A DNA stretch of 64,000 nt from positions 7,825-71,824 of the forward strand of contig CAYNHT010000004.1 of NCBI GenBank assembly GCA_964397485.1, read 5' to 3'. Made by a program: the position numbers and the translations under genes. Positions 32,670 through 63,860 of the stretch are shown piece after piece (position 1 is the stretch's first letter; the number at the start of each line of letters is the position of its first letter). The DNA comes from an uncultured Muribaculaceae bacterium (GTDB taxonomy: Bacteria; Bacillota_I; Bacilli_A; RF39; UBA660). The notes under the pieces were generated by a model. It worked only from the letters and a program-made list of their open reading frames with translations. It ran no database searches and was not told the origin of the DNA.

Positions 32670-32710
32670 ATTATCACCATTATTATTGTAGCACAAAAAA
32701 AGAACAAAAT

Positions 32711-40619: not shown

Positions 40620-42692
40620 TTAGTTTCCACCATTTTTCTTAATAATATCTTCAGCGATATTTCTAGGAACTTCTTCATAATGATCAAATACCATAGTAAA
40701 TGTTCCACGACCTTGTGTATTAGAACGTAATGAAGTTGCATATCCAAACATCTCTGAAAGTGGTACCATAGCATCTATTGCTAAAGCATTACCACGTGAT
40801 TCTTGACCTAATGGTCTACCACGACGAGATGTAACATCACCCATAACATTTCCTAAATATTCATCAGGAACTACTACTTGAACTTTCATAATTGGTTCAA
40901 GTAAAATTGGTTTACATTTACTTTTAGCTTCTTTTAAAGCCATACTAGCAGCTATTTTGAAAGCCATTTCTGATGAATCTACATCATGGTATGAACCATC
41001 AAATAAAGTTGCTTTAACATCAACCATTGGGTAACCTGATAAAACACCTGTTTTTAAAGCATCTTGTAATCCTTTATCTGTTACTGGAATATATTCACGA
41101 GGAACAACTCCACCAACAACTGCATCAACGAACTCATAACCCTTATCAGGATTTGGTTCAAATTTGATCCAAACGTGTCCGTATTGTCCACGACCACCAG
41201 ATTGTTTAATGTACTTACCTTCACATTCAGCCGCTACTGTTAATGTTTCACGATAAGAAACTTGTGGTTTACCAATGTTAGCCTCAACACCAAATTCACG
41301 ACGCATTCTATCAACAATGATATCAAGGTGAAGTTCACCCATACCAGCAATGATAGTTTGCCCTGTTTCATGATTAGTGCTTGCTCTAAATGTAGGATCT
41401 TCTTCTGATAACTTTTGTAAAGCCGTCCCCATTTTATCTTGATCAGCTTTTGATTTTGGTTCAACTGCTAATTCAATAACCGGTTCAGGGAAAACCATTG
41501 ATTCAAGAATACAAGCTTTCTTTTCATCACATAAAGTATCTCCTGTTGTAGTATTTTTAAGACCTACTGCTGCTGCAATATCTCCAGCATACACTTCACT
41601 GATTTCTGTACGAGTATTAGCATGCATTTGTAATAAACGACCAATTCTTTCTTTAGTATTCTTAGTTGCATTTAAAACATAAGAACCACTAGTCATATGA
41701 CCAGAGTAAACTCTGAAGAATGTTAATTTTCCAACAAATGGGTCAGTCATTACCTTAAACGCTAATGCACTAAACGGTTCATTATCTGAAGGATGTCTTT
41801 CGATTTCATTGTCATTTAAATCAATACCTTTAATTGATTCAATATCACTAGGTGCCGGTAAGTAATCAACAACAGCATCTAATAATAATTTAACACCTAC
41901 ATTACCTAAAGCAGTTCCACATAATACTGGGAAAAACTCAACTGCAAGCGTTCCTTTACGAATTGCTTTTTTAATTAATTCAACAGAAATTTCCTCGTCA
42001 GCCAAGTATTTTTCCATTAATTCATCATCAAATTCAGCTACTGCCTCTATTAGTTCATTTCGTTTTTCTTCAACTAAATCAACTAAATCAGCGGGAATAT
42101 CGATAATAGTTGGTTCTTCTTCTTGTTTACGATCATATTGATATGCTGTTTTTGTAACTAGGTCAATAACACCATTGAATTCATTTTCTGCCCCAATTGG
42201 CCATTCAATTGGTTTAGCATTTACGCCTAAACGGCTATCAATAGTACTTAAACTGTATTCAAAGTTCGCACCCATTTTATCCATTTTATTAGCAAAAATC
42301 ATTCTTGGAACTTTGAATTCAGTAGCTTGACGCCAAACTGTTTCTGTTTGTGGTTCAACACCAGCTTGAGCATCTAAAAGAGCAACTGCTCCATCTAATA
42401 CTCTAAGTGATCTTGATACTTCAACTGTAAAATCTACGTGGCCCGGAGTATCAATGATATTAAATCGGTGATTTTTCCAAAAAGCTGTAGTAGCTGCTGA
42501 AGTAATAGTTATACCACGTTCTTGTTCTTGTTCCATCCAGTCCATTTGAGAAGCTCCATCATGAGTTTCCCCAATTTTATGGATTTTTTTAGTATGGAAT
42601 AATATACGCTCAGTACAAGTTGTTTTACCTGCATCTATATGCGCCATAATTCCAAAGTTACGTGTTTTTTCTAAACTATATTCACGAGCCAT
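40620..42692 (-). CDS. fusA: Elongation factor G.
   Basis: [21 protein letters not shown]; 690 aa. Confidence 0.97.
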
Positions 42693-45121: not shown

Positions 45122-47713
45122 TTAATTTGTTGGGGTTATCGACATATCAAAATTACGTAACTCATATATTGCAAAACCTGCTTGAGTTCCTGTTATATCT
45201 TTATTAGTAGTAAAAATTATACTTTGAATTTTATGCTGCTTTGGTTTTACCGTAATATAGAATACAGGATAAGTTGAATCAGCTAAAATTCCATTAGTCT
45301 TAATAATATCAATTGGATTAGAATAATGATTAGCTGGTGTATAAAGAGAGTTTGATACAATTACTAACGGTTCTAAATATCCACTATCAACGCAATCTTC
45401 AATACTAGCGACATATCCATCTTCAAATTTTATTTTAAAATTACTAACAGTTACACTTCCACTATTATATAATCTAAAAAACATTTGATTCCAATTTAAT
45501 TTGTTATCAGGCTCATTGTCAACTAAATATTCGCGTTCTCCAGCAAATACCTGTTTAACATTACCAACTTTTTCAATGTTAGTTAACATTTTACTATCAT
45601 CACTATTAAACGGTCTTAAACATTGACCATAATCATAATTATTATTACCAATTGTTTCAAATGAACTACACCAACCTTTTAAATCTTTGGTTGGATCATT
45701 GCTTGTATATATATTATCGTAGTTCATACTTATATCACTTCCATAATTAGGTTGTATATTTTTTAATTTTTCAATTAATACTACAGGTTCTTGGAAAATT
45801 TTAGATAAATTTAAATTACTATCATAACTAACCAACATAGCATCACTATGTCCTTTGTTAAAGTTTTTTAAATCCATATTAGAAGAATAAGTACTTCCTG
45901 ATACTATATATTGACCATTACCTGCTTTTATCATATTTCTAAATTTTTCACTGTTATCTCCACCAAATACTTTTTTAGAAATTACATTTCCATTAGTTAT
46001 ATTATACTTTACAATAATTGCATTACTATATCCTTCATTGGATTTAGATATTCCAGTCATATCTAAATCGGATGATTTGCTATACCCTATTACTACAACT
46101 TCGTTATTGTCGCTTTTTTCTATTGCATAAAATACGTCATCATTACTTCCTCCAAATGAATTTTTCCACAAAACCGTATCTAAATTTTTATTATATTTTA
46201 TTATTACAGCATCTACATAACCATTACTTGCCTTACTTAATCCGGACATATCCATATTATTAGCGGCACTTTGACCAACTACTATGTAACCGTCTGATAC
46301 TTCAATAACATCATAAAAATAAGTGTGTCCATCACCACAAAAAGTATTCTTTGTTAATATATCTAAACTACTATTGTATTTTACAATTATACCAATGTAA
46401 TTAAAATTGCTTGGACATGTTGTTCCAGCCATATCACCATTTACTGAAGCTGAATTACCTACAACAATATAATTAGAGTCAGCTGAAGCTAACAGACTTT
46501 GATATGCATCAGCGGACGCCCCACTAAATATATGATGATCTATTATATTTAAATTTAAATCATATGACATTATTATTGCATCCAAACTACCAGGAACAGC
46601 TGGTCTTACTAATGAAGCTACATCTCCATCAAATGTAGAAGACAGTATATGGCCAACTACTACAATCTTATTTTCTTGATTAATTACTTTTATAAATGTT
46701 TCATAATTATTGTTTGATGAACCAAAAACTTTATTAATAATTACTTCACCTTGCTTATTGTATTTAACAATAACCGCATCACTCGGACCACCTTTATAAT
46801 CAACTATGTCACCGTCACTACTTGCCGTTGTACCTACAGCAATATAACCGTCCACCGTTTCTACAACTGAATTAAACGAATCCTCATTGCTTCCACCATA
46901 GTTTTTACTCCATAGGACATTGCCTTGATTATCAAACTTTACTATAATGGCGTCAAAACCACCATTATTACCGGTCCCATATTTTGTTATTACTTCAGAA
47001 TTACTTTTACCAACTGCTATATATCCGCCATCACTTGTTTCTTTAACATCATTAAATTCATCAAGATATTTACCACCATAACTTACATAATGACTCGCAA
47101 ATGTTGAGGCATCAAGTAGACAATCTACATAAGCATTATAACCATAACTATCAGCACCAACTTTCTCAATCTCTACATAACCTACACAACGATTTGTTAA
47201 ATCAGTTGGGATTCTTATCTCAGCAACTTTTTCTTCATCAATTAATAAGTTAAGATCAAGCATTGTTGTTTCACCAATCTCAGTTGGCAAAGTAACATTC
47301 ATACTTTTGGCACTTGCAACCATTTTCTGTTGGTACCATTTAAATGAATCATTATCATAAAGTTGTAACGAATAATTAACTATCCCATTTTCCTTATAAA
47401 TTAATACTTTTGTTTCATCTGGTATTTCTTGATTATTTAAAGGGTTTAAAATTTTTCCCCTTAAATATCCCGTTTCTTTTAATCTTCCTACTTCAACATA
47501 AGTTGTATCTCCTTCCCATACTAACTCATCATTATATTTAAAATAATATAATTCGGCTGATTTGGCAACCATGTCTCTTTGTCTGTCATAGACTCCACCT
47601 TTACTTCTATCAATAATATTCATTATTATTGGGGTTGCTATTAGGGCTATGATTGCAAGAATCACTATTACTGCAAGTAACTCTATTAAAGTAAATCCTC
47701 TTTTCTTTTTCAT
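45122..47713 (-). CDS. Giant prepilin-signal SBBP beta-propeller repeat protein, array B paralog 1 (~864 aa). Start set to ATG at 47713 (MKKKRGFTLIEL...); the ORF-track start at 47773 adds 20 non-homologous residues.
   Basis: Class III signal peptide; conserved ~200-aa N-terminal domain; >=6 repeats of the form DGGY.AVG.S.S.D.D...GG.DA.IVKYD..GN..W.K.FGGS..D.F (SBBP-like); conserved ~280-aa C-terminal domain ending IYELRNFDMSITPTN. Confidence 0.8.
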   Translation of the reverse strand: MKKKRGFTLIELLAVIVILAIIALIATPIIMNIIDRSKGGVYDRQRDMVAKSAELYYFKYNDELVWEGDTTYVEVGRLKETGYLRGKILNPLNNQEIPDETKVLIYKENGIVNYSLQLYDNDSFKWYQQKMVASAKSMNVTLPTEIGETTMLDLNLLIDEEKVAEIRIPTDLTNRCVGYVEIEKVGADSYGYNAYVDCLLDASTFASHYVSYGGKYLDEFNDVKETSDGGYIAVGKSNSEVITKYGTGNNGGFDAIIVKFDNQGNVLWSKNYGGSNEDSFNSVVETVDGYIAVGTTASSDGDIVDYKGGPSDAVIVKYNKQGEVIINKVFGSSNNNYETFIKVINQENKIVVVGHILSSTFDGDVASLVRPAVPGSLDAIIMSYDLNLNIIDHHIFSGASADAYQSLLASADSNYIVVGNSASVNGDMAGTTCPSNFNYIGIIVKYNSSLDILTKNTFCGDGHTYFYDVIEVSDGYIVVGQSAANNMDMSGLSKASNGYVDAVIIKYNKNLDTVLWKNSFGGSNDDVFYAIEKSDNNEVVVIGYSKSSDLDMTGISKSNEGYSNAIIVKYNITNGNVISKKVFGGDNSEKFRNMIKAGNGQYIVSGSTYSSNMDLKNFNKGHSDAMLVSYDSNLNLSKIFQEPVVLIEKLKNIQPNYGSDISMNYDNIYTSNDPTKDLKGWCSSFETIGNNNYDYGQCLRPFNSDDSKMLTNIEKVGNVKQVFAGEREYLVDNEPDNKLNWNQMFFRLYNSGSVTVSNFKIKFEDGYVASIEDCVDSGYLEPLVIVSNSLYTPANHYSNPIDIIKTNGILADSTYPVFYITVKPKQHKIQSIIFTTNKDITGTQAGFAIYELRNFDMSITPTN

Positions 47714-47744: not shown

Positions 47745-47773
47745 ATAATAACACACCTGCTGTTTTTCGTCAA
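47745..47773 (-). promoter_or_regulatory. Promoter (TTGACG-17-TATTAT) for array B paralog 1.
   Basis: Minus strand: plus CGTCAA 47768-47773, 17-nt spacer, plus ATAATA 47745-47750. The same element sits upstream of paralogs 2 and 3. Confidence 0.4.
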
Positions 47774-47798: not shown

Positions 47799-47826
47799 TT
47801 GAAAGAAAAAAAGAGTTAAACTCTTT
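47799..47826 (-). terminator. Terminator immediately after array B paralog 2.
   Basis: AAAGAG-TTAAA-CTCTTT hairpin abutting the stop codon, then TTTTTTCTTTC on the minus strand. Confidence 0.45.
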
Positions 47827-50427
47827 TTAATTGGTCGGTGTTATTGACATATCAAAATTACGCAATTCATATATTTGTAACCCGTCAGTGTTATTAATAA
47901 TTTGACGATTAGAAGTAAAAATTACACTGCTTAATTTTGATTTTTTAGGCTTTATTTTTATATCTATATTTGGATAATTTCCGACTCCTGTAGTTCCTCC
48001 CGTATTAATAATATCCAATGAGTTAGGAAAGAAATATGTAGTTGAGTTTAATAATAAAGAGGATACAACAACCATTGGCTCAATATAATTATTAGCTAAT
48101 GCATCGCTAATACTAGCTACATAACCGTCTTCAAATTTAAGTTTCAAATTTGAAATCTCAATTGTATTTCCACCACCGCTTAAAAAATACAAATATATTC
48201 TATACCAATTATAATTGTTGTCTGGTTGTTTTTCTATTTCATATTCGTGTTCTCCTGCATATACAACTTTAAAATTAGAAGTATTTTCACCATTAGTTAA
48301 AAGTCTAATATCATCATTATTAAATGGGAATAAACAATAACCATAATTATGATTAATATTAGGAGCATAATTAGTTCCAGAACTACACCAGTTGCCAATA
48401 TCAACACTAGGATTATTAGATGTATATACATTGTCATAATATGAAGAAATTTCAGTACCGTAATTTGGAACAATCGTTTTTAATTTATCAATTATCACAA
48501 CTGGTTCTTCGAACGTTTTAATTAGGTTCAAGTTACTATCATAACTGACTAAGATTGCATCTCTATGTCCTTTATTAAAGTTTTGCAAGTTATAATTATT
48601 TGAATATGTTCCACCTGCTATAACATATCTATTATTATCATTTCTTATAATAGCATTAAAAGCATCACTATTACTTCCACCGAAAACTTTCTTTTGCAAT
48701 ACATTTCCACTTCCATTATATGTAACTAAAAATGCATTACTATATCCACTTCCTGATACAGTTATACCATTCATATCCATATCTTCTGATTTACTATATC
48801 CAACAACAGCAAATTCCTCATTACTAATTTTTAATATATCTCTGACATAATCTTCATCCGAACCACCAAAACTCTTTTTCCAAACAATATTTGATAAGTT
48901 TTTATCATATTTAACTATGATACCATCATATATTTCAGAATCTGTTTTACTCAAGTCAGTCATATCTCCATTAATAGAAGCGCTATATCCCACTGTAATA
49001 TATCCATTATCAACTTCAATTGCACCATTAAATAGTTCTGACTTACTTCCCTTGAAAGAATTTTTATATTCTAGATTACCATTACTATCATATTTTATGA
49101 TTATCGCATCGCTATCTGCATAGGTAGTATCATATGCTAATCCAAGCATATCGTGGTCAAATGAACTCGAACCACCAGTAACAAGATATCCATTATCACT
49201 TGTTTGCATTACGGTGTTAAAGTTTTCATAATATGTTCCTGAGAAAAAACTTCTCCATACGGTATTAAAATTATTATCAAATTTAATAATTATACCGGCA
49301 CTTCTCGTTCCTGGAGCAGTAACACCTGTCATATCTCCGTCTTTCACTAAGATACATGAACTTCCTACAACAATAAAACCATCATTAACTTTAATAATAT
49401 CTCTAAATGCATCAGTTCCATTTGTACCAGATGAACCATAACTTATTTTATTAACAACATTACCACTTAGATCATATTTAACTAAAATAGCATCATCAGT
49501 TCCACCTTTATATATACCTTCTAAATCTACATCATTTGAATTAGTATATCCAACTGCAACATATCCGTCAGTAGTTACAGCAACTGCACGAAAATAATCA
49601 TGACTAGTACCACCAAAATTTTTGCTCCATTCAACATTACCTTGACTATCAAATTTAACAATTATTGCATCATATTTTCCTTTAGTAGTATTTCCATATT
49701 TTGTTATGACTTCAGAATTACTCTCTCCTACTGCTATATATCCGCCATCAGCAGTTTGTTTAACATCATTAAACACATCTAAGTATTTTCCACCATAACT
49801 GACATAGTGACTTGCAAATGTTGATGCATCAATTAAACAGTCTACAAATGCATTATACTCATAATTGTTATTACCAATTTTTTCTATTTCTACATATCCT
49901 ACACAACGATTTGTTATATCGGTTGGTATTCTTATCTCGGCTGATTTTCCCTGATTAATTAACGTATTTAAATCAATAGTTGTTGTTTCTCCAACTTCGG
50001 TTGGTAGAGTGATATTCATGCTTTTCACACTTTCTACCATTTTTTGTTGATACCACTTAAATGAATCATTATCATATAACTGTAACGAGTAATTTACTAG
50101 CCCGTTTTCCTTATAGATTAATACCTTTGCATCATCTGGGATTTCTTGATTATTTAATGGGTTTAAGATTTTCCCCCTTAAATATCCTGTTTCTTTTAAT
50201 CTTCCAACTTCAACATAAGTTGTATTCCCTTCCCATACCAACTCATCATTATATTTAAAATAATATAATTCGGCTGATTTGGCAACCATGTCTCTTTGTC
50301 TATCATAAACTCCGCCCTTACTTCTATCAATAATATTCATTATTATTGGGGTTGCTATTAGAGCTATGATTGCTAGAATTACTATTACTGCGAGTAATTC
50401 TATTAATGTAAATCCTCTTTTTTTCAT
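47827..50427 (-). CDS. Giant prepilin-signal SBBP beta-propeller repeat protein, array B paralog 2 (866 aa).
   Basis: MKKRGFTLIELLAVIVILAIIALIATPIIMNIIDRSKGGVYDRQRDMVAKSAELYYFKYNDELVWEG..., almost identical over the first ~200 aa to paralogs 1, 3 and 4; divergent repeats in the middle; conserved C-terminus. Confidence 0.85.
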   Translation of the reverse strand: MKKRGFTLIELLAVIVILAIIALIATPIIMNIIDRSKGGVYDRQRDMVAKSAELYYFKYNDELVWEGNTTYVEVGRLKETGYLRGKILNPLNNQEIPDDAKVLIYKENGLVNYSLQLYDNDSFKWYQQKMVESVKSMNITLPTEVGETTTIDLNTLINQGKSAEIRIPTDITNRCVGYVEIEKIGNNNYEYNAFVDCLIDASTFASHYVSYGGKYLDVFNDVKQTADGGYIAVGESNSEVITKYGNTTKGKYDAIIVKFDSQGNVEWSKNFGGTSHDYFRAVAVTTDGYVAVGYTNSNDVDLEGIYKGGTDDAILVKYDLSGNVVNKISYGSSGTNGTDAFRDIIKVNDGFIVVGSSCILVKDGDMTGVTAPGTRSAGIIIKFDNNFNTVWRSFFSGTYYENFNTVMQTSDNGYLVTGGSSSFDHDMLGLAYDTTYADSDAIIIKYDSNGNLEYKNSFKGSKSELFNGAIEVDNGYITVGYSASINGDMTDLSKTDSEIYDGIIVKYDKNLSNIVWKKSFGGSDEDYVRDILKISNEEFAVVGYSKSEDMDMNGITVSGSGYSNAFLVTYNGSGNVLQKKVFGGSNSDAFNAIIRNDNNRYVIAGGTYSNNYNLQNFNKGHRDAILVSYDSNLNLIKTFEEPVVIIDKLKTIVPNYGTEISSYYDNVYTSNNPSVDIGNWCSSGTNYAPNINHNYGYCLFPFNNDDIRLLTNGENTSNFKVVYAGEHEYEIEKQPDNNYNWYRIYLYFLSGGGNTIEISNLKLKFEDGYVASISDALANNYIEPMVVVSSLLLNSTTYFFPNSLDIINTGGTTGVGNYPNIDIKIKPKKSKLSSVIFTSNRQIINNTDGLQIYELRNFDMSITPTN

Positions 50428-50459
50428 ATGTCAACTACCTTCCTTATCATTACATATAA

Positions 50460-50488
50460 ATAATAACATAACCATATTGTTTCGTCAA
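50460..50488 (-). promoter_or_regulatory. Promoter (TTGACG-17-TATTAT) for array B paralog 2.
   Basis: Plus CGTCAA 50483-50488 and ATAATA 50460-50465. Confidence 0.4.
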
Positions 50489-50508
50489 TTATTAGTATAC
50501 AGATAAAT

Positions 50509-50529
50509 GAAAAAAGAGTTTGAAACTCT
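50509..50529 (-). terminator. Terminator after array B paralog 3.
   Basis: AGAGTTT-G-AAACTCT hairpin with flanking T-run. Confidence 0.45.
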
Positions 50530-50531
50530 CT

Positions 50532-53084
50532 TTAATTTGTTGGTGTTATTGACATATCAAAATTACGTAATTCGTAAATTGATATTCCCCTATCAGTTCC
50601 CGTTACATCTCTATTAGATGTAAAAATAAAACTATCTATTTTCTTTTGTCTAGATTTTAAATTCATATAGAAAACAGGGTAAGAAGAGCCATCTATTTTT
50701 CCATCTGTAAATAAAATATTATTTAGATTGTTGTAAGTTCTATCACTGTATGGAGGATATGTAAGAATATTCGAAACCACAACTAGAGGTTCAATATACC
50801 CGTCACTAACACTTTGTTCTATACTACCTATATACCCATCTTCAAATTTTATCTTAAAACTACTTAATTCTGTATTGTCATTTTGCATCCTAAAATATAG
50901 TTGATACCAATTAGTTTTAACATTTGGTTCATTGATTATAGGATATTCATTTTCACCTTGATAAATTATTTTAAAATTCGGATTGTTTTCGATGTTATTT
51001 AATAACTTCATATCATCAGAGTTAAATGGTCTTAAACACTGACCATAAGGATAATTACTTTCTCCATTTGGCAAGTAATTGCTACACCAACCGCTTAGAT
51101 CAACTTCTGGATTATTGCTAGTAAAAATATTTGAATAATTTAAACTAGTATCAGTTCCATAGTTAGAAACTATTGTTTTTAATTTTTCAATTATAACAAC
51201 AGGTTCCTGAAATATTTTTGACAAATTAAAATTCATATCATAACCTACTAGAATTGCATCACTATGCCCTTTATTAAAGTTTTTTAAATATCCGTCACTA
51301 GAGAACGTTTGCCCAGCTAATATAAATCTATTACTACTAGTCTTGATAATACTTCTAAATATATCACTGTTGTTTCCGCCGAAGATTTTTTTAGAAACAA
51401 TACTTCCATCAGTAATGCTATATTTTACAATAACAGCATTACTGTAACCATCTTTCGATATAGCTAGTCCACTCATATCCATATCTTCAGACTTACTATA
51501 CCCTACCGCTACTACCTCATTCGCATTAACAGAAGTAACAGCATAAAATACATCATCATTACTCCCACCAAATGACTTTTTCCATATTATATTTTGTAAA
51601 TTTTTATCATATTTAACAATTACTGCATCATTGTAACCATTACTGGCTTTACTTAAATCTGTCATGTCTAAATCAAACCCATTTGAATGACCTACAACTA
51701 TATAGCCATCTGATACCTCAACTATATCATTAAAAGCACCACGACTATTATTACCACCATAAAATTCCATACTTGATACCATTTCCATATCGTTATCTAA
51801 TTTAAATATATATGATGTATATCCACCTTTATATGTTGCTACTCCGATATACCCATTATCTGTAGCAATAAATTCTTTAAAATCTCTATAACTGTGAGCA
51901 TTATGAAATTTAGTTGTCAATATATTAAAGTCAAAATCCATTGTCATAATAATAAATTGAAAACGCCCACCTTCATATATAGCATTTAGATAATCTCCGT
52001 CCTTGGTATATATATCAGCATTTCCTGATATTATAAACTTATTGTCTTTTATCATTATGTGGTTAAAACTTTCACCACCATCTAGGTTTGTTCCACCATA
52101 AGTTCTTTTGTATACTACATTTCCTTGTTTATTAAACTTGACAATTATAGCGTCTGTCGGACCTCCTTTGTAATCATCTATATCGATGTCTTCACTAGAT
52201 GTAGAACCTACTGCTACATAACCATCAGCTGTTTCTAAAACTGAATTAAAAATGTCATTATTGCTTCCACCAAAATTTTTGCTCCAAAGAACATTACCGT
52301 TTGAATCAAATTTTACGATTATCGCATCATACATTCCATTATTACCAATTCCATATTTTGTAATAACTTCCGAGTTACTTCTTCCAACCGCTACATAACC
52401 ACCATCAGTTGTTTCTTTTACATCATTAAATTCATCAAGATATTTACCACCATAACTAACATAGTGACTTGCAAATGTTGATGCATCTAGTAAACAATCT
52501 ACATATGCTTCATATGCATAATTATCATTACCTATCTTTTCTACTTCAACATATCCTACACAACGATTTGTTATATCGGTTGGTATTCTTATTTCTGCTG
52601 CTTTACCTTCGTTTATAAGAGTATCCAAATCAACTGTTGTTTTTTCTCCTATTTCAGTTGGTAATTCTATATTCATGCTTTTGACGCTTTCTACCATTTT
52701 TTGTTGATACCACTTAAATGAATCATTATCATATAATTGAAGTGAATACTTTACTATACCGTCTTCTTTATAAATTAGTACTTTTGTTTCATCTGGTATT
52801 TCTTGATTATTCAAAGGATTTAATATTTTTTCTCTTAAATATCCTGTTTCTTTTAATCTTCCTATTTCAACATAACTTATATCATCTTCCCATACTAACT
52901 CATCATTATATTTAAAATAATATAATTCAGCTGATTTGGCAACCATATCTCTTTGTCTATCATAGACTCCACCTTTACTTCTATCAATAATATTCATTAT
53001 TATTGGCACAGCTATTAGGGCTATGATTGCAAGAATCACTATTACTGCTAAAAGTTCTATTAACGTAAATCCTCTTTTTTTCAT
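50532..53084 (-). CDS. Giant prepilin-signal SBBP beta-propeller repeat protein, array B paralog 3 (850 aa).
   Basis: Same architecture as paralog 2; ends ...ISIYELRNFDMSITPTN. Confidence 0.85.
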   Translation of the reverse strand: MKKRGFTLIELLAVIVILAIIALIAVPIIMNIIDRSKGGVYDRQRDMVAKSAELYYFKYNDELVWEDDISYVEIGRLKETGYLREKILNPLNNQEIPDETKVLIYKEDGIVKYSLQLYDNDSFKWYQQKMVESVKSMNIELPTEIGEKTTVDLDTLINEGKAAEIRIPTDITNRCVGYVEVEKIGNDNYAYEAYVDCLLDASTFASHYVSYGGKYLDEFNDVKETTDGGYVAVGRSNSEVITKYGIGNNGMYDAIIVKFDSNGNVLWSKNFGGSNNDIFNSVLETADGYVAVGSTSSEDIDIDDYKGGPTDAIIVKFNKQGNVVYKRTYGGTNLDGGESFNHIMIKDNKFIISGNADIYTKDGDYLNAIYEGGRFQFIIMTMDFDFNILTTKFHNAHSYRDFKEFIATDNGYIGVATYKGGYTSYIFKLDNDMEMVSSMEFYGGNNSRGAFNDIVEVSDGYIVVGHSNGFDLDMTDLSKASNGYNDAVIVKYDKNLQNIIWKKSFGGSNDDVFYAVTSVNANEVVAVGYSKSEDMDMSGLAISKDGYSNAVIVKYSITDGSIVSKKIFGGNNSDIFRSIIKTSSNRFILAGQTFSSDGYLKNFNKGHSDAILVGYDMNFNLSKIFQEPVVIIEKLKTIVSNYGTDTSLNYSNIFTSNNPEVDLSGWCSNYLPNGESNYPYGQCLRPFNSDDMKLLNNIENNPNFKIIYQGENEYPIINEPNVKTNWYQLYFRMQNDNTELSSFKIKFEDGYIGSIEQSVSDGYIEPLVVVSNILTYPPYSDRTYNNLNNILFTDGKIDGSSYPVFYMNLKSRQKKIDSFIFTSNRDVTGTDRGISIYELRNFDMSITPTN

Positions 53085-53116
53085 ATGTCAACTACCTTCC
53101 TTATCATTACATATAA

Positions 53117-53145
53117 ATAATAACATACCGATATTGTTTCGTCAA
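53117..53145 (-). promoter_or_regulatory. Promoter (TTGACG-17-TATTAT) for array B paralog 3.
   Basis: Plus CGTCAA 53140-53145 and ATAATA 53117-53122. Confidence 0.4.
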
Positions 53146-53164
53146 TTATTACTATATAGATAAA

Positions 53165-53188
53165 TGAAAAAAGAGTTTGAAACTCTTT
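53165..53188 (-). terminator. Terminator after array B paralog 4 (and its out-of-frame remnant tail).
   Basis: AAAGAGTTT-G-AAACTCTTT hairpin plus T-run. Confidence 0.45.
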
Positions 53189-53191
53189 TTA

Positions 53192-53248
53192 ATTTGTTGG
53201 TGTTATTGACATATCAAAATTACGTAATTCGTAAATTGATAAACCGTC
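53192..53248 (-). pseudogene. Untranslated, in-frame remnant of the conserved C-terminal 19 codons (DGLSIYELRNFDMSITPTN*) of array B paralog 4, cut off from the CDS by a premature TGA at 53249-53251.
   Basis: Minus strand reads ...AAT TAT AAT AAT TTA TGA GAC GGT TTA TCA ATT TAC GAA TTA CGT AAT TTT GAT ATG TCA ATA ACA CCA ACA AAT TAA. The DNA is near-identical to the coding 3' ends of paralogs 1-3. Confidence 0.6.
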
Positions 53249-55783
53249 TCATAAATTATTATAATTTTTAGAACTTGTTAAATATATTGAATTCAACTTT
53301 GATAATTTAGGTTTAAAAATTAAGTAAAGTGATGGTGAAGATCCAACACCAGTTCTTCCACCTTCATTTATTAAATCTATAACATTTGGATAAAGTGCAG
53401 GTGGATAAGTTGTAGTTACATACGAATTTACAATTACAAGTGGCTCTATGTAACCTTTTTCTATTGCGTCTGTTATATGACCAATATAACCATCTTCAAA
53501 TTTTAACTTTAAATTAGATAATTCTAAATTACCAGTACCAAAGCTATTATAGGCACGTAACAAATGCCAATTATTATTATTTGTTTGTTGATTTATTACC
53601 TCATATTCATATTCACCCTGATACATTTTAGCTCCATAACCTAGTTCTGAAACTGTCAATAATTTTTGATCATCCATATTAAATGGTCTTAGACAAAACG
53701 CATGATAATAATTACTTGTATTGCCGGTAGTATAAGGGACATTGCTATTGCACCATCCTAGTAAATCTTTTGTGGGATCATTACTAGTGTATATATTATC
53801 ATACTTTAAACTAATATTAGAACCATAATTGCTTTGGATAGGCTTGATTTGATCTATTAGTACAACTGGTTCTTGGAATATTTTAGATAAATTAAAATTA
53901 TTATCATAACTAACTAAGATTGCATCCTGATGACCTTTGTTAAAATTTTTCAAATCCAAGTTGTTCGAATATGTAGATCCGGACAATACATAAGCACCAC
54001 TACTAGTTTTTACGATACTATGGAATTTATCGCTATTCGTTCCACCAAATGTTTTTTTAGAAATAACATTTCCTGTAGCTATGTCATATTTTACTAAAAT
54101 AGCATTGCCATACCCATCTGTTGATTTAGTTATTCCGCTCATATCCATATCTTCAGATTTACTATATCCAACAATTACAACCTCATTATTATTCACTTTT
54201 TCGGCTGAATAAAAATAATCGTCATTACTCCCGCCAAATGTTTTTTTCCATAATACTGCTTCTAAATTTTTATCATATTTCACGATTACAGCATCGAAAT
54301 AACCATTGTCAGTTTTACTAAGACCTAACATATCTTGATCAGATGATTTACTATATCCGACAGCTATATAACCATCTAATACTTCTACTACATCATAAAA
54401 ATAATCCTGTTTACTTCCACGCAAGGAATTTTTTCCAACTAAATTTCCTTCATCATCAACCTTTATAATAATGGCTTCCTCTTGATAAGTATCAGTTGTA
54501 TAACCAATACCATCCATATCATAATCTTTTGACGTAGAAAAACCAGTTATGACATAGTTATTATCACTAGTCTTGATTCCTTTATTGAATTCTTCATTAT
54601 AATGGCCAGTAAAAATATTCATCCATTCAACCTCTAAATTTAAATCAAACTTTATTGTTAACCCCTCTAAAGATCTAACTAGTCCTTGAACATCTGTCAT
54701 ATCTCCGTCATTATTACTGCCTATTCTAGCGAAAACAACAACCGAATTACCAGATGATACAACTCCCATAAAGTGTTCCCAACTTTGACTTGTTCCAAAA
54801 TTTCTTTTAGCCAAAACTTCACCTTGGCTACTATATTTTACTATTAAACCGTCACTTGTTCCACCCCAATAAGAATCAATATCTAAATCATTACTAGATG
54901 TTGAGCCAACTGCAATATATCCACCCGGAATTTCAACTACACTTCTGAATATATCATTATTACTTCCACCAAAATTTTTACTCCAAAGGACATTACCATT
55001 AACATCAAATTTTACTATAATAGCATCATATTTGCCATTATTTCCAATTCCATATTTAGTTATTACATTCGAATTGCTTCTTCCAACAGCTAGATATCCT
55101 CCATCACTTGTTTCAATTACATCATTAAATTCATCTAAATATTTGCCGCCATAACTAAGATAGTGGCTTGCAAATGTTGATGCATCAAGTAGACAATCTA
55201 CATATGCTTCATATGTATAATTATCATTACCTACTTTTTCTATATCTACATATCCTACACAACGATTCGCTAGATCAGTTGGTATTCTTATCTCTGCTGC
55301 TTTACCTTGATCAATTAATGTGTTTAAATCAACTGTGGTTTTAGTACCAATTTCAGTTGGAAGTTCTATATCCATACCTTGGACACTGGCTACCATTTTT
55401 TGTTGGTACCACTTAAATGAATCATTGTCATATAATTGCAAAGAATAATTTATTTTACCATCTTCTTTGTATATTAATACTTTTGCTTCATCTGGGATTT
55501 CTTGGTTATTTAAAGGGTTCAATATTTTTTCTCTTAAATATCCCGTTTCTTTTAATCTTCCTATTTCAACATAACTTATATCATCTTCCCATACTAACTC
55601 ATCATTATATTTAAAATAATATAATTCAGCTGATTTGGCAACCATATCTCTTTGTCTATCATAGACTCCACCTTTACTTCTATCAATAATATTCATTATT
55701 ATTGGGGTTGCGATAAGAGCTATGATTGCTAAAATTACTATTACTGCTAGTAATTCTATTAATGTAAATCCTCTTTTTTTCAT
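53249..55783 (-). CDS. Giant prepilin-signal SBBP beta-propeller repeat protein, array B paralog 4 (844 aa), C-terminally truncated by ~19 residues relative to its paralogs.
   Basis: MKKRGFTLIELLAVIVILAIIALIATPIIMNIIDRSKGG... with the same architecture; ends ...LTSSKNYNNL* where paralogs continue to ...IYELRNFDMSITPTN. Confidence 0.8.
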   Translation of the reverse strand: MKKRGFTLIELLAVIVILAIIALIATPIIMNIIDRSKGGVYDRQRDMVAKSAELYYFKYNDELVWEDDISYVEIGRLKETGYLREKILNPLNNQEIPDEAKVLIYKEDGKINYSLQLYDNDSFKWYQQKMVASVQGMDIELPTEIGTKTTVDLNTLIDQGKAAEIRIPTDLANRCVGYVDIEKVGNDNYTYEAYVDCLLDASTFASHYLSYGGKYLDEFNDVIETSDGGYLAVGRSNSNVITKYGIGNNGKYDAIIVKFDVNGNVLWSKNFGGSNNDIFRSVVEIPGGYIAVGSTSSNDLDIDSYWGGTSDGLIVKYSSQGEVLAKRNFGTSQSWEHFMGVVSSGNSVVVFARIGSNNDGDMTDVQGLVRSLEGLTIKFDLNLEVEWMNIFTGHYNEEFNKGIKTSDNNYVITGFSTSKDYDMDGIGYTTDTYQEEAIIIKVDDEGNLVGKNSLRGSKQDYFYDVVEVLDGYIAVGYSKSSDQDMLGLSKTDNGYFDAVIVKYDKNLEAVLWKKTFGGSNDDYFYSAEKVNNNEVVIVGYSKSEDMDMSGITKSTDGYGNAILVKYDIATGNVISKKTFGGTNSDKFHSIVKTSSGAYVLSGSTYSNNLDLKNFNKGHQDAILVSYDNNFNLSKIFQEPVVLIDQIKPIQSNYGSNISLKYDNIYTSNDPTKDLLGWCNSNVPYTTGNTSNYYHAFCLRPFNMDDQKLLTVSELGYGAKMYQGEYEYEVINQQTNNNNWHLLRAYNSFGTGNLELSNLKLKFEDGYIGHITDAIEKGYIEPLVIVNSYVTTTYPPALYPNVIDLINEGGRTGVGSSPSLYLIFKPKLSKLNSIYLTSSKNYNNL

Positions 55784-55870
55784 CTACTACACTACCTTTC
55801 TTACAATATATAAATGATATCATATTTATATAATAACCGTCAATGTTAGAACAATACTATTTCATTCAAA

Positions 55871-55902
55871 ATAAAAAGAGTTGAATCTTGAGTTCAACTC
55901 TT
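55871..55902 (-). terminator. Rho-independent terminator after rpoC.
   Basis: AAGAGTTGAA-TCTTGA-GTTCAACTCTT, 10-bp stem, followed by a T-run on the minus strand. Confidence 0.65.
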
Positions 55903-55907
55903 TTTGG

Positions 55908-58900
55908 TTAATCCATTAATTCTTGTTCTAATGCTTCTAATGGTTCTTCCTTTAGTAAATCTAGTTCTAAATCATAATCAAACTTTTGATATTTTTTAGC
56001 ACCTGTTCCTGCTGGAATTAATTTACCAATAATAACATTTTCTTTTAACCCGTTTAAGTGATCCACTTTACCATGAATTGCTGCATCTGTAAGTATTCTA
56101 GTTGTTTCTTGGAATGATGCTGCAGATAAGAATGAATCAGTTTCAAGTGAGGCTTTAGTAATACCTAACAATACTGGACGACCAGTTGCTGGATTTTTAC
56201 CTTCAAGAATTAATCCTTTATTAATATCTGTAAATTTATTTATGTTTACCATTGTTCCTGGTAATGATAATGAATCACCTGTATTAATTATCTTTATTCT
56301 AGAAATCATTCTTCTAGCTATAACTTCAACGTGTTTATCACTAATATCAACACCTTGAGAACGATAAACTTTTTGAATTTCTAATAAAATGTATTGTTGT
56401 ACAGTAATTGGATCTGTTACGATTAAAAGTTCTTTAGGACTAATTGCACCATGTGTAAGTCTTTGCCCCGCTTTAACTTCTTCGTTTAGCTCAACAGCTA
56501 ATTTAGAACCATAATTTGATGTATGCTCTTTTGTTTCAACATCGTTTGTTACTGAAATAACAAATTTACCATTTTCTTCTTCGATCTTAGATACTCTACC
56601 GTTAATATCTGAAATAGTAGCTTTACCTTTAGGATTACGAGCTTCAAACAACTCTTGAACACGAGGTAAACCTTGTGTAATATCATCCCCGGCAACTCCA
56701 CCTGTATTAAATGTACGCATCGTTAACTGTGTACCCGGCTCACCAATTGATTGGGCTGCCATAATACCAACTGCTTCTCCAATTTCAACAACTGATCCAG
56801 TTGCTAAATTACGACCATAACATTTTTGACATACACCATGGTCTGTTTTACATGTAAGAACAGTTCTGATAGGTACTTTTGTAATTCCTGCTTTAATAAT
56901 CTTGTCGGCAAGTTGTTCATTAATATAAGTATTTCTCTCAGCAATGACTTCTTTTGTTTCTGGATGAATAACTTTTTTATTAGTATATCTTCCGATAATA
57001 CGATCAGAAAGTGATTCAATTATTGTTCCATCTTTTTCATTAGTAAAAGCTGCAACTAACACACCTTGTTCAGTACCACAATCTTCTTCTTTGACAATTA
57101 TATCTTGTGATACGTCAACTAAACGACGAGTTAAGTAACCAGCATCCGCTGTTTTTAACGCTGTATCAACGGCTCCCTTACGAGCACCATGTGTTGATAA
57201 GAAGAATTCAGATATTGTTACCCCTTCACTAAATGAAGATTTAACAGGAATCTCTACATATTCTCCACCCGGCTTAAAGAATAATCCACGCATACCAACT
57301 AATTGAGTATGACTTCCAATATCCCCACGAGCTTTACTCATCATCATGATAGAAATTGGATTTTCTTTATCTTCTTTAACCATTGTTTCTAATTCCTTAG
57401 AAATTTTTGTTTTAGCGTTTGACCATATATTAATAACTTTTTCATATCTTTCTTGATCAGTAATTAAACCTCTCTTAAATTGCTTATTAATAGTGTCTAC
57501 CATATCTTGACTCTCTTTTAAGACTTCAGGTTTAATAGTACTTTCTTTGATATCTGTAATAGCAATCGATATTCCAGATAAAGTAGAATATTTAAATCCT
57601 AAATCCTTTAGTTTATCAAGCATAACTGATGTTTCAGTTGTTTGATATCTTTTATATATTTGAGCAATTATCTTACTTAAAGCCCCTTTATTTAAAGCAT
57701 CAATCAGTGGCATATTTTCAATTTCTTCTTTAATGTTTTTACCACTATCAATAAAGAATTTGCTAGGAGTAATTTTTTCAATATTCTCAGAACTTCCTTC
57801 GTTAATATATTGGAAAGTATCTGGGAAAATTTCATTAAATAATAATTTACCAGGAGTTGTTGCTAAATACTTATTCATATAAGCATCAGGGAAAATTTTG
57901 TATTTAAATGATCTTACTGGTAACGCAATACGTGTATGAAGAGTTATTTCTCTTCTTTCATATGCCATAATTGCTTCGTTAGCATTTTTAAATACTCTTC
58001 CTTCACCAGGTAATCCCGCTTTTTCAATTGTTAAGTAGTAATTACCTAAAACCATATCTTGTGACGGTGTAACAATTGGTTTACCATCTTTGGGACTTAG
58101 GATGTTATTAGCACCTAACATCAAAATACGAGCTTCTGCCTGTGCTTCTTCACCAAGTGGTACGTGAACTGCCATTTGATCTCCATCAAAGTCGGCGTTG
58201 AATGCCGCACAAACTAATGGATGCAATCTTATAGAACGACCACTAATTAATTTAGGTTCAAATGCTTGAATACCTAATCTATGTAATGTAGGAGCACGGT
58301 TTAATAACACTGGATGCTCTTTGATCTTTTCTTCAACAATATCCCAAACTCTAGGATCTTGATTTTCAATCATTCTTTTCGCAGCTTTAATATTAGAAGC
58401 TATTTCCTTAGTTACTAATCCATTAATAACATGTGGTTTAAATAACTCTAATGCCATTTCTTTAGGTATTCCACACTCATACATTTTTAAGTTTGGACCT
58501 ACTACGATAACTGAACGTCCTGAATAATCAACACGTTTACCTAATAAGTTTTGGCGGAATCGACCTTGTTTACCTTTAAGCATACTACTTAATGATTTTA
58601 ACGGACGATTTCCAGCCCCTGTGATATTTCTACCGCGACGACCATTATCAAATAAAGCATCAACAGCTTCTTGAAGCATACGTTTTTCATTTTGAATAAT
58701 GATAGACGGAGCTCCTAAATCCATTAATTTCTTTAAACGGTTATTTCTGTTAATAACACGACGATATAAATCATTTAAATCACTAGTAGCGAAACGTCCA
58801 CCATCCAATTGAATCATAGGACGTAACTCTGGTGGTATAACTGGTAGTGCATCTAAAATCATCCATTCAGGACGATTTCCTGATTCCATGAATGCACTTA

Positions 58901-59543
58901 ATACGTCTAATCTTTTTATTAAACGAATTCTTTTTTGTGAAGTAGAATCTTTAATTTCTTCAATATCTTTTTTTATTTGTTCTACTTCTGGTTCAAGTAC
59001 TACTTGTTCCAATAATTCTTTAATTGCTTCCGCACCCATTCCTACTCTAAAAGTATTACCATATTTTTCATAATAAGCACGGTATTCTTTATCAGAAATA
59101 GTTTGTTTTTTCTCTAATGGGGCTGCTCCTGGATCTAAAACAACATACGATACAAAGTATAATACTTCTTCTAAATCACGTGGAGACATATCTAGAACTA
59201 ATCCCATTCTTGATGGAATTCCTTTAAAGAACCAAATGTGAGATACAGGAGTTGCAAGTTCAATATGTCCCATACGCTCACGACGTACCTTAGAACGAGT
59301 TACTTCAACTCCACATCTATCACAAACAATATTTTTATATCTTAAACGTTTATATTTACCACAAGAACATTCAAAATCCTTTGTTGGACCAAATATTTTT
59401 TCACAAAATAGTCCGTCACGCTCTGGTTTTAAAGTTCTGTAGTTAATAGTTTCAGCTTTTTTTACTTCACCAAATGACCAAGATCTTATTTTATCAGGTG
59501 AGGCAATTGCGATTTTTAAACCTTCAAAGTTGTTAACATCCAT
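55908..59543 (-). CDS. rpoC: DNA-directed RNA polymerase subunit beta' (RpoC).
   Basis: 1211 aa; [29 protein letters not shown]..., zinc finger CSCGKYKR...[15 protein letters not shown] catalytic motif. Confidence 0.98.
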
Positions 59544-62500
59544 TAGTCCTCATCCCCTTCCACTAAGTCATCAGATAAATCTGGTTGATCATCATCAGAT
59601 TCATCTAAAACATCATCAAATTCATTTTCAGCATCATCAGCCTCTTCATTGTCAGGCTCATCAGTTTGTTTACTTTTTTCACCTGCTAACAAATTAACAT
59701 CTATGCTTTTTTCAAATTCATCAGTTGTTAGGAAACTATCTTTTTCAGCTTCTTCTAATTCTCTTAGTTCAACATAATTTCCTTCTTGATTCAATACTGT
59801 AATATCAAGACCTAATGCTTGGAATTCTTTAATTAAAACTCTAAACGATTCAGGAACACCAGATTGAGGTATTGGTTGACCTTTTACTAATGCTTCATAA
59901 ACTTTAACACGTCCAATAACATCATCAGATTTGATAGTAATCATTTCTTGTAAAACGTTAGCTGCTCCATATGCATAAAGAGCCCAAACTTCCATTTCTC
60001 CAAATCTTTGTCCACCAAATTGTGCTTTACCACCCAATGGTTGCTGTGTAACTAGTGAGTAAGGACCAGTAGAACGTGCATGTAATTTATCATCAACCAT
60101 GTGATGAAGTTTTATCATATACATAATACCTACGCTGACACGATTATCAAATGCTTCCCCTGTACGACCATCATATAATAAAGCTTTTCCATCTTCGTCT
60201 AAATTAGCTTCTTTCAAAGCATCTATAATTTCTTCACGATCAGCTCCTGAGAATACTGGTGTAGCTACATGAATATTAAGTTGTTTAGCTGCCATACCTA
60301 AATGCATTTCTAGAATTTGTCCAATATTCATACGGCTTGGAACCCCTAGTGGATTAAGTAAAATATCCACAGGTTCACCATTTTCCATATATGGCATATC
60401 CTCTTCTGGTAAGATTAAAGAAATAACACCTTTATTACCATGACGACCAGCCATCTTATCTCCAACTGTAATCTTACGTTTTTGAGCTATATATACTCGA
60501 ACTATTTTTGATACACCTGCAGGAAGTTCATCAGAATCTTCTTTAGTAAATATTTTAACATCATGGACGATACCTTCTCCACCGTGTGGTACACGAAGAG
60601 ATGTATCTCTTACTTCCCTTGTTTTTTCTCCAAAAATAGCATGTAATAATTTTTCTTCACTTGTAAGTTCTGCCATCCCTTTAGGTGTAACCTTACCTAC
60701 TAAAATATCATCATCTTTAACTTCAGTACCAATACGAATGATACCATTCTCATCTAAGTTTTTACGAGCTTCTTCACCTACGTTAGGAATATCTCTTGTA
60801 AACTCTTCAGGTCCTAGTTTAGTATCACGGCACTCAATTTGATAATCTTCAATGTGAATTGATGTATAAACATCATCTTTAACTAAACGTTCACTTAAAA
60901 TAACAGCATCCTCATAGTTATAACCATTGTAATTCATAAATGCTACAGTAATGTTTTTTCCAATAGCCATTTCACCTAAATCAGTACTTGGCCCATCAGC
61001 AATTACCATATCTTTTTTTACAATATCACCATTTTTAACTATAGGAATTTGATGATAACATGTACCATTATTACTTTTTTCAAATCCGTTTAGATAATAT
61101 GTATCTGATCCACCAACTGTTTTTACAACAATCTTACGAGAATCAACATAATCAACAACACCATCAGCATTAGCAATAATAACTGCACCAGAATCTTTAG
61201 CTGCTACAGCTTCAATTCCTGTTCCTACTAACGGAGCCTCTGTTTTTAATAATGGAATGGCTTGACGTTGCATGTTAGCACCCATCAATGCTCTTTTTCC
61301 ATCATCATGTTCCAAGAATGGAATACCACTTGTTGTTATTGAAACAACTTGTTGTGGTGAAACATCGATGTAATCTACTTGCTCTTTATCAACGATAACA
61401 TTTTCACCGCGATAACGAACAGGTACACGTTCTTCGATAATTTCGTCATTTTCATTTATTTCAACTGTTGCTTGTGAAATGTTATAATCTAACTCTTCAT
61501 CAGCAGTCATATATTCGATTTCATCTGTCAATTTACAATTATTTACACGACGATATGGCGTCATAATGAAACCATAGTCATTAACTCTTGCATAACTTGC
61601 TAAAGCTGTAATAAGTCCGATGTTTTGACCTTCTGGTGATTCGATTGGACATAATCTACCATAATGTGATGGATTAACGTCACGAACTTCCATACCAGCA
61701 CGATCACGAGATAATCCCCCTGGCCCTAATGAAGATAAACGACGTTTATTTCCAAGCTCGGCCATCGGATTTGTTTGATCCATGAATTGTGATAATTGAC
61801 TACTACCAAAGAATTCTTTAACAGCTGCAGTCAAAGGTCGAATATTAATTAATGATTTAGGAGTAACATCTGCCATTTCTTGAGTTGACATACGATCTCT
61901 AATTACTCTTTCAATACGACTAACACCAATTCTAAATTGGTTTTGTAATAATTCCCCAACTTGACGAACTCGTCTATTTGATAAATGATCTATTTCATCA
62001 AAATTACCAATACCTTCTAATAAATTTAAATAGTAAGATACTGATGCATAAATATCAGAAATAGTTAATCTCTTAATATCAATTTCACGATCATTTCCAA
62101 TAATATTAACTATTTTTTCTGGGTTTAACTTAGAATACACTTTAATAACTTGAACTTTATTATAAGTATCTAAATCAGGATTAATAGAAACTTCTTTAAC
62201 CCCATAACCATCAGCTAAAATATTTTTTAATTCTCTTAAAATATCTTTTGTAATTAATGTGCCAGCTGGATATAAAACTTCTTTATTAACTTTTATATCT
62301 TCTGCTAGAACACAGTTTAATAAACGATCCGCTACATCTAATTTTTTGTTAAATTTATAACGTCCAACTTTAGCTAAATCATAACGGAATGAATCAAAAA
62401 ATCTTGTAATTAATTGATTTTTAGCACTATCTAAAGTTGATGGTTCTCCTGGACGTAGTTTTGAATGAATATCGATTAAAGCTTCATCGGTATTCTTATT

Positions 62501-63175
62501 TGCATCTTTGTCAAGTGTTCTTCCGATATAATCATCTTCTCCGTATAAGCTAATAATATCTTCATCGTTTGATAAACCAATAGCACGAAGTAATGTAGTA
62601 ACTGGAACTTTTCTTGTTCTATCAATACGAACATAGATGACATCTCTTGCATCTGTTTCATATTCTAGCCAAGTTCCTCTAGTTGGAATAACTTGTGCTG
62701 CTACGACTAAACGACCATTTTTATCTATTTCTTTAACAAAATATACACTTGGAGAACGAACTAATTGTGAAACAATTACTCTTTCTGCCCCGTTGATAAT
62801 AAATGTGCCAGATTCAGTCATGATGGGCATGTCTCCAAGATAAATATCTTGTTCCTTAACTTCCCCTGTCTCTTGATTAAAAAGTCTAGCTGCGACCTTT
62901 AAAGGTGCTGCATAAGTTGCATATCTCTCCTTGCACCCTTTAATTGAATATCTTGGTTCTTCAAAAGAATAGTCACCAAATTCTAACGACAAATTTCCAG
63001 TGAAACTTTCCACTGGAAAAATATCATCAAATACTTCCTTGATTCCATCAGTCATAAACCAATTATATGACTTTTTTTGGATTTCTAGTAAATTACCTAG
63101 TTCAATAGCATTTTTTGTTTTTGCATAACTTCTTCTTTCACGGTGATCACCAAATTTTTTAATTGTATAAGCCAC
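59543..63175 (-). CDS. rpoB: DNA-directed RNA polymerase subunit beta (RpoB). Start re-assigned to GTG at 63175 (M)[18 protein letters not shown] with a GGGGTGA RBS; the ORF-track TTG at 63205 adds 10 residues.
   Basis: ~1210 aa; N-terminal spacing to RERRSYAK matches Bacillus RpoB (MTGQLVQYGRHRQRRSYAR); C-terminal acidic tail; stop overlaps the rpoC start. Confidence 0.95.
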
Positions 63176-63272
63176 TCTTTCACCCCTATAAACTATATTT
63201 ACCAAAGAACATAAACTCGATTATAAAGTATATGCCGCCAATTTATAATTTTATCAGTATATATACAAATTG

Positions 63273-63860
63273 TCAATTGTTTCGGGCACAAATTATGTAA
63301 AATCCCTTGATTTTATCAATAATCTGTACACTATATTCTTGTTCTAAATCTTTAACTAATGACTTGGCTCCCTGATCCTTATTGATAACAAGCCATAACT
63401 CGCCGCCACTAACCAAATGATTTTTAGCCTCAAATAGAATTTGATACAATATCTTTTTGCCAATTCTAATCGGTGGATTAGTAACAATAAAATTATATTT
63501 TTCATTAATATTACTGTAAATATCACTCGCAAAAACATTTACATCCACTTTATTTAATAAAGCATTTTTTTTTGCTAAAGCAATACTTCTTTCATTCACA
63601 TCAATCATATCAACTCTAATCTTGGTATTTTTACCCAAATAAATACCGATTGGTCCATAACCACAACCAAAATCTAAAATTTTTCCTTCTAACCTTTCTA
63701 AAGGAATACTTTCTAAAAGTGATCTAGTTCCAAAATCTAGACCCTTTTTAGAAAAAACACCATTATCAGTTAAAAATGAGTAAGATTGGTTATTAATGTC
63801 TACTTTCACTTCTTTCGGTTCACTTGGAAGATTGGAATTGTTTGTAAAATAATGTGCCAT
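63273..63860 (-). CDS. Class I SAM-dependent methyltransferase, RsmC-like small rRNA methyltransferase (Bacillus YbxB homolog, which also sits directly upstream of rpoB).
   Basis: ILDFGCGYGPIG (motif I), VDVNVFASD, TNPPIR (NPP motif); 195 aa. Confidence 0.8.
   Translation of the reverse strand: MAHYFTNNSNLPSEPKEVKVDINNQSYSFLTDNGVFSKKGLDFGTRSLLESIPLERLEGKILDFGCGYGPIGIYLGKNTKIRVDMIDVNERSIALAKKNALLNKVDVNVFASDIYSNINEKYNFIVTNPPIRIGKKILYQILFEAKNHLVSGGELWLVINKDQGAKSLVKDLEQEYSVQIIDKIKGFYIICARNN

Follow-up and report, generated by a model that had tools for sequence, protein, structure and literature searches.

The stretch of DNA analysed here (the window, 64,000 nucleotides) carries four head-to-tail paralogs on its minus strand, p4, p3, p2, and p1, which lie between rpoC and the rpsL-rpsG-fusA-tuf genes. 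Three of them are intact, i.e., p3 (53084..50532, 850 aa), p2 (50427..47827, 866 aa), and p1 (47713..45122 from its ATG, 863 aa), and all three finish in ...ELRNFDMSITPTN-TAA. The fourth, p4 (minus strand, 55783..53249), encodes 844 aa and closes with TGA at 53251..53249; the minus-strand translation of 53150..55783 reads ...IYLTSSKNYNNL*DGLSIYELRNFDMSITPTN*, with the asterisks marking stops. This premature TGA is codon 845 of the gene. It is followed in frame by 19 codons, DGLSIYELRNFDMSITPTN (53192..53248, minus strand), which correspond to the conserved C-terminal tail of the family and are untranslated unless the stop is read through, and then by the original TAA (53189..53191, minus strand), which p4 has in common with the three other paralogs. 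The first-pass annotation had described an in-frame TGA that truncates the fourth paralog and a 19-codon tail downstream of it, and both are present at 53251..53192 in the p4 translation. The range that it gave, 53192-53251, comprises exactly the TGA and the tail, and the TAA (53191..53189) falls just outside. The common end that it assigned to paralogs 1-3 was also found, and the p4 tail is followed by the same TAA and terminator.

Each paralog of the array has its own promoter-like site and its own terminator-like hairpin. Upstream of p4, the sequence TTGACG-18-TATCAT with a TG element (55814..55843, minus strand) is located 3' of the rpoC terminator (55905..55873). The site of p3 is TTGACG-17-TATTAT with an upstream TG (53117..53145, minus strand), and the same element, also on the minus strand, precedes p2 (50488..50460) and p1 (47773..47745). 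Downstream of the p4 tail, an A/U-rich hairpin, AAAAAGAGUU-UCA-AACUCUUUUU, is followed by a U-run (approximately 53167..53190, minus strand) and is conserved after p4, p3, and p2. The stem of the p4 hairpin contains just two G-C pairs, which explains why it is missing from the terminator scan list. Since every paralog possesses both elements, a polar effect of the p4 stop on its neighbors is not expected, and the early stop would leave the adjacent genes unaffected.

The similarity among the paralogs is confined to the ends of the genes. When compared in 60-nt windows, the array paralogs share 90-100% pairwise DNA identity over approximately 250-400 nt at the 5' end, whereas the central 2 kb or so is only 30-80% identical. 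At the 3' end, p4 and p3 are 98% identical in the last alignment window (the last approximately 50 nt plus the spacer), whereas the 600 nt ahead of the tail are 38-67% identical. The first-pass view that the DNA is nearly identical to that of the neighboring copies thus holds for the two ends and fails for the center. Starting at TCA ATT TAC, p4 and p3 agree in almost every base along the tail, the terminator, and the next promoter, and the match of the p4 tail to the other paralogs is therefore a matter of homology rather than of chance. The TGA itself sits in p4-specific sequence, 9 nt ahead of the repeat that is common to p3, and is not part of a homopolymer. Phase variation by slipped-strand mispairing was considered and rejected, since the site has neither a repeat nor a homopolymer.

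The coding region of p4 that remains (53252..55783, minus strand, 844 aa) covers, in addition to a prepilin-type motif and a pilin-like helix, a β-propeller and the greater part of a β-rich C-terminal domain. The N-terminus matches the prepilin-type methylation motif (PF07963, E = 1.2e-7; TIGR02532, E = 4e-8), and a G/FTLxE motif followed by a hydrophobic helix is found there, as in type IV pilin-like proteins. The AlphaFold model was that of P0002, the closest homologue of p4 (described below), and was built with an alignment of 50 sequences; its mean pLDDT is 88.1. It takes the shape of a long N-terminal helix (residues 8-62) with a pilin-like head, a β-propeller, and a β-rich C-terminal domain of approximately 220 aa; for the propeller, CylK is the top match in the PDB (Foldseek E = 5e-23). 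When the whole model was searched against the PDB with Foldseek, only the CylK-like β-propeller was reported and the C-terminal domain was not identified; a Pfam search of that domain gave no matches even at E = 5. Residues 846-852 (GLSIYEL) of the model form a seven-residue β-strand that lies within blocks of pLDDT 88-96. The truncation takes away this strand of the tail together with the near-invariant RNFDMS motif. As judged from the model and the alignment, no stretch of the C-terminal domain is more conserved than the residues lost, and in the main product of p4 this domain is probably destabilized or nonfunctional.

A search of 5.8 billion proteins yielded approximately 60 full-length members of the family (848-878 aa), mostly from metagenome-assembled genomes named "Bacilli bacterium" by their submitters. 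P0002 (locus L004, GCA_002410935.1; 863 aa) is 69% identical to p4 overall and 77% identical in the C-terminal domain, and its protein ends in ...SIYLTSSKDYTNLWDGLSIYELRNFDMSITPTE. The premature TGA of p4 is aligned with a TGG codon (Trp844) of P0002: the DNA of P0002 reads AAT TTA TGG GAT GGC TTA TCA and that of p4 reads AAT TTA TGA GAC GGT TTA TCA. The surrounding codons are collinear, and a single base separates the stop from the sense codon of the homologue. This comparison shows TGG to be the ancestral codon, and one transition, G>A in the third position of the codon, from TGG (Trp) to TGA, accounts for the stop of p4.

In the family alignment, which consists of 50 sequences including p4 and on which the invariant columns were computed, Glu851, Asn854, Phe855, Asp856, and Ser858 are present in 49/49 of the other full-length relatives; all 49 carry the tail, and natural loss of the tail was observed in none of them. 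The tails of p4 and P0002 differ by six synonymous and two nonsynonymous changes, with both nonsynonymous changes in the last codon, and the resulting pN/pS is 0.09 in the tail versus 0.25-0.49 in the remainder of the gene. Gene-wide, approximately 50-70% of the synonymous sites differ between the two. The conservation in 49/49 members and the low pN/pS show that the tail continued to be translated and constrained during nearly all of the divergence from P0002; i.e., the p4 tail was under purifying selection almost all the time since p4 separated from its closest relative. For the same reasons, the converse scenario, in which the stop is ancestral and reverted in P0002, is not credible. Relative to the divergence of p4 and P0002, the stop would thus be young. 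Further searches added little to this comparison: a further search of proteins, with 227 aa of the C-terminus as the query, returned five matches, none closer than 62% identity; a profile search of genome contigs with the family alignment, in which the generic pilin N-terminus dominated, returned approximately five true family loci, none of them close to p4; and a search of metagenome contigs with the C-terminal domain found no relatives.

The first-pass annotation had called the stop very recent, which is plausible and poorly constrained. A tighter date is impossible because the 57 nt of the tail are too short and because the tail may be refreshed by gene conversion from p3. The base identity of the tail with that of the adjacent paralog means that the stop could be older than it appears. 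In its strongest form, this argument makes p4 either a long-standing pseudogene or a truncated isoform with a function, in which the tail is kept fresh by repeated gene conversion of a block of 3' end, terminator, and promoter from the neighbor. The change from 38-67% to 98% identity with p3 at the tail speaks for such conversion, and the homogenized 5' ends within the genome are of the same kind: p4 and P0002 are only 53% identical over the N-terminal 130 aa compared with 77% in the C-terminal domain. A 58-nt patch derived from a paralog also varies between assemblies, as described below. On the other hand, a conversion tract 9 nt longer would have erased the stop, the promoter-like site of p4 is intact, and no other family member is naturally without the tail. 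The gene also has no other lesion or frameshift and has kept, upstream of the stop, every residue that is invariant in the family, a retention that follows from p4 being itself a row of the alignment that defines the invariant columns. We consider an old allele unlikely. A recent nonsense substitution is preferred, and the first-pass judgment that the locus is not in long-term decay is upheld by the TGG of the homologue, the in-frame tail, and the conserved residues upstream.

That annotation had left a sequencing error as an alternative, and this part is disfavored. An identical 844-aa p4 protein occurs on seven contigs from JGI and ENA assemblies, and the three loci that were returned as DNA (JGI 3300033161, JGI 3300033428, and ENA ERZ27252287) show 0 mismatches to the window over 2,684 nt, the TGA included. 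Over 10.5 kb, the assemblies that carry the allele differ from the window by only six SNPs, all within 58 nt of p3 (52884-52941). This patch lies in the homogenized 5' part of the gene, and its alternative version is the sequence of another paralog. The TGA allele is reproducible in several assemblies, all of which belong to one clone, and some of them may derive from related samples, which limits their independence. A strain with TGG at the p4 site was found in none of the protein, contig, and pattern searches; when metagenome and genome contigs were scanned for the DNA that flanks the stop, exact except for NNN in place of the codon, there were 0 matches and hence no alternative allele.

If the TGA were a sequencing or assembly error, the true base would be G and the codon TGG. 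The window comes from a metagenome-assembled genome, and assemblies of this family show artefacts caused by repeats: contigs break or join in the conserved 5' regions (a paralog is where locus L002 stops and where L003 and L091 start, either inside it or at its edge), L003 connects p4 to a gene that belongs to another array in L090, and the six-SNP patch in p3 swaps between paralog versions from one assembly to another. The stop codon is, however, placed in p4-specific sequence away from any homopolymer or repeat junction, where a point substitution cannot arise by a mis-join, and the same base was recovered on all seven contigs from different samples. At such a site, and with the allele shared by several assemblies, neither a random error in the reads nor a mis-join of repeats is likely, and we regard an erroneous base as very improbable. 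L003 had been a candidate for an independent strain with the same allele and was rejected as such, since its downstream gene belongs to the L090 array of the same genome and the join is probably chimeric.

The next question is how the UGA codon is read. ORFs of 100 aa or longer number 41 in the window and account for 91% of its length. Their 19,386 sense codons include 109 TGG and 0 in-frame TGA, while 1,531 TGA triplets occur off frame. These ORFs end in TAA (32), TAG (5), and TGA (4), the four with TGA being 14541..15617, 31764..32696, 63273..63860, and p4, and no other split-looking ORF was found in the window. The first-pass annotation had called recoding to Trp unlikely, which agrees with these counts, but the ground that it gave was mistaken: rpoB (59543..63205), rpoC (55908..59543), and fusA (40620..42692), cited there as genes that end in TGA, all end in TAA. 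The ratio of 109 TGG to 0 in-frame TGA excludes code 4 or code 25 as the normal code; a code-4 genome at 30% GC, which is the GC content here, would write Trp mainly as TGA, as in the codon usage of Mollicutes. These counts indicate that TGA is a true stop and that the genome uses the standard code.

Three features nevertheless invite the reading that p4 is really full length, with UGA recoded as Trp (code 4, as in Mycoplasma and Spiroplasma), Gly (code 25), or selenocysteine. The codon aligns with a Trp of the closest homologue, a hairpin begins right after the UGA, and the relatives that carry the family were labelled Bacilli, Mollicutes, or Tenericutes metagenome-assembled genomes by their submitters, a group of which part reads UGA as Trp. 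Against this stand the codon counts given above, which also lead us to reject a glycine reading, and the three other ORFs that end in TGA. In addition, two other interrupted paralogs of the same genome have TAG and TAA, so that in-frame stops in the family are not specific to TGA. The hairpin after the UGA is built from the codons for YELRNFDMS, which occur in all paralogs without the UGA, and the best Rfam match (E = 0.15, not significant) lies on the opposite strand and is to an unrelated sRNA. Cys was never seen at the position of the stop among the homologues, which have Trp or various other residues instead; with Trp in the closest homologue, a hairpin made of codons found in UGA-free paralogs, and no significant Rfam match, selenocysteine was rejected. 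A tRNA-Trp gene was found neither in the window nor in the 10 kb upstream of it. Recoding is extremely improbable, and termination at the UGA of p4 is retained.

Two further members of the family in the same genome are interrupted, and the first-pass statement that one copy only has lost the conserved motif is accordingly correct within the array and incorrect for the genome as a whole. In P0019, a TAG stands where the family has its invariant Trp738. P0019 is located on the rpoB contig, approximately 13 kb upstream of the rpoB-containing stretch L088 (83549-91777 versus 104544-122747 in record coordinates). P0057 and P0122 are one gene that is split by a TAA; the interrupted position is codon 554, a Leu codon in p3. 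Two of the three nonsense events in the family are G>A changes on TGG, and both would be the expected product of mutation pressure in a genome of 30% GC. The stop of p4 is one of several recent nonsense mutations in a large, fast-evolving, and partly redundant family.

Taken together, the locus is most likely explained by a genuine and probably recent nonsense substitution, TGG>TGA (Trp845*), in the first of four tandem, separately transcribed paralogs that encode pilin-like surface proteins of approximately 860 aa. Release factor 2 would terminate translation at the UGA, and the main product would lack the last 19 residues and end in ...NYNNL. A minor fraction of ribosomes may misread the UGA as Trp and produce the full-length ancestral protein, in which case the readthrough product would span NYNNLWDGLSIYELR and the allele would be hypomorphic and not strictly null. 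For annotation, p4 is best marked as a gene with a premature stop (Trp845*), and taken neither as a naturally shorter member of the family nor as evidence for an alternative code. More informative than the stop itself is the gene family, which evolves as a mosaic, array by array: one genome has at least three arrays of pilin-like β-propeller proteins of approximately 860 aa, with homogenized ends, divergent centers, and three copies with recent nonsense mutations. This pattern suggests a redundant repertoire of surface proteins with fast turnover in an uncultured lineage.

Natural premature-stop alleles of a surface-protein gene are known from inlA of Listeria monocytogenes. As in those alleles, a nonsense change of one base in p4 removes a C-terminal part of a large surface protein and leaves the rest of the gene and the downstream sequence intact. 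Unlike inlA, p4 loses only 19 residues, which include a β-strand of a folded domain and not a known anchoring signal, and it is one of many paralogs. Belinky et al. 2021 (PMC7918605) also described bacterial genes that stay under purifying selection despite an in-frame stop, with an intact, conserved frame downstream, but the stop of p4 is confined to one clone and its closest relative has TGG. According to that paper, with Karow et al. 1998 and Parker 1989 as its sources, no stop codon is leakier than UGA, at which Trp is inserted, and readthrough of catA86-TGA is approximately 6% in wild-type Bacillus subtilis. In the cases covered there (leaky UGA decoded by the tRNA-Trp(CCA) of Escherichia coli, Salmonella, and B. 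subtilis; PMC7918605), the situation resembles that of p4, which has a former Trp site where readthrough would bring back the ancestral protein. Variants of tRNA-Trp with a 4-bp anticodon stem, described in bacteria, read UGA as well (PMC13092985). It is very doubtful that the lineage, labelled Bacilli or Mollicutes by submitters, reads UGA as Trp to an appreciable extent, e.g., through a weak release factor 2 or an unusual tRNA-Trp, so that TGG>TGA was tolerated and the full-length protein is made; were it so, p4 would be a snapshot of the first step toward the UGA = Trp code of the Mollicutes type. Equally doubtful is the broader idea that the three in-frame stops of the family serve to turn individual copies of the surface protein down instead of off. 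The likeness to that code (table 4) and to the tRNA-Trp with the 4-bp stem (PMC13092985) consists of an AT-rich genome, the Bacilli or Mollicutes label, and a TGA at a Trp position, whereas p4 is a single case against 109 TGG, and TGA ends other ORFs here. In comparison with these systems, the event in p4 is an ordinary mutation.

Four genes encoding pilin-like β-propeller proteins of ~860 aa are inserted between rpoC and rpsL on the minus strand (window 45122-55783), and each array gene carries its own set of a promoter-like site (TTGACG-17/18-TATTAT/TATCAT) and a terminator hairpin. The paralogs are 90-100% identical over the 5' ~300 nt, as well as over the last ~50 nt and the spacer; in their centres, the identity falls to 30-80%. 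In a comparison with the closest homologue from another genome, amino acid identity is lower in the N-terminal module (53%) than in the C-terminal domain (77%). Together with the homogenised ends, this difference suggests that the gene ends of the array are under concerted evolution within a genome. The mechanical ORF call for paralog p1 begins at TTG 47773, which lies within the promoter-like site of p1 itself (47773..47745). The true start is almost certainly ATG 47713 (MKKKRGFTLIE...), in agreement with the database protein P0004 (863 aa).

In p4, the paralog with the premature stop, the first base after the UGA is the start of a minus-strand hairpin at 53206-53248 (GACG...AUCAA-UUUACG-AAUUA-CGUAA-UUUUGAU...GUC). 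The hairpin is composed of the conserved SIYELRNFDMS codons and is therefore also found in the intact paralogs; it probably arises only as a side effect of the encoded peptide sequence.

Two further interrupted members of the family are found in the same genome. The database protein P0019 (742 aa; locus L086, 3001-5607, and locus L088) belongs to a second family array, and its family-invariant Trp738 is replaced by an in-frame TAG, past which 107 codons, including the ELRDFDMSITPTN tail, are left and still in frame. This array is located on the rpoB contig (L088), about 13 kb upstream of the stretch in which rpoB lies. In a third array, which adjoins a β-lactamase-family gene and scpA/scpB, codon 554 of one member is an in-frame TAA, where the paralogs have Leu; the gene is thereby divided into ORFs of 553 aa and 301 aa (L090, 4306-6906; L003, 2714-5314).

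Over the 10.5 kb compared, the window differs from the JGI metagenome contigs only by six SNPs clustered at 52884-52941, in the 5' part of p3. The window version of this patch is that of p4, and the JGI version is that of the 553-aa paralog from another array. The patch results either from gene conversion among the paralogs or from a mosaic assembly of the repeats. The contig of L003 (ENA ERZ27252287 k141_204146) begins 14 nt upstream of the start codon of p4 and, beyond the 5' region of p3, runs into a gene that L090 places in a different array. This junction is probably a repeat-induced chimeric join, and metagenome contigs through these arrays thus need to be treated with care.

The prepilin-type N-terminus of the array is shared by two large minus-strand proteins with different bodies (1693-6479), presumably the "array A" of the first-pass annotation; these bodies contain fn3 and Laminin_G_3 domains (795 aa) and fn3 and Ig-like domains (762 aa).

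Directly downstream of the p4-p1 array, the minus-strand gene at 44286-44957 is followed by a gene for a 158-aa protein without a family match. The 44286-44957 product itself is similar to NtrR, a Nudix-type repressor that responds to ADP-ribose (NF050029), at an E value of 4e-37, a match below the curated cut-off.
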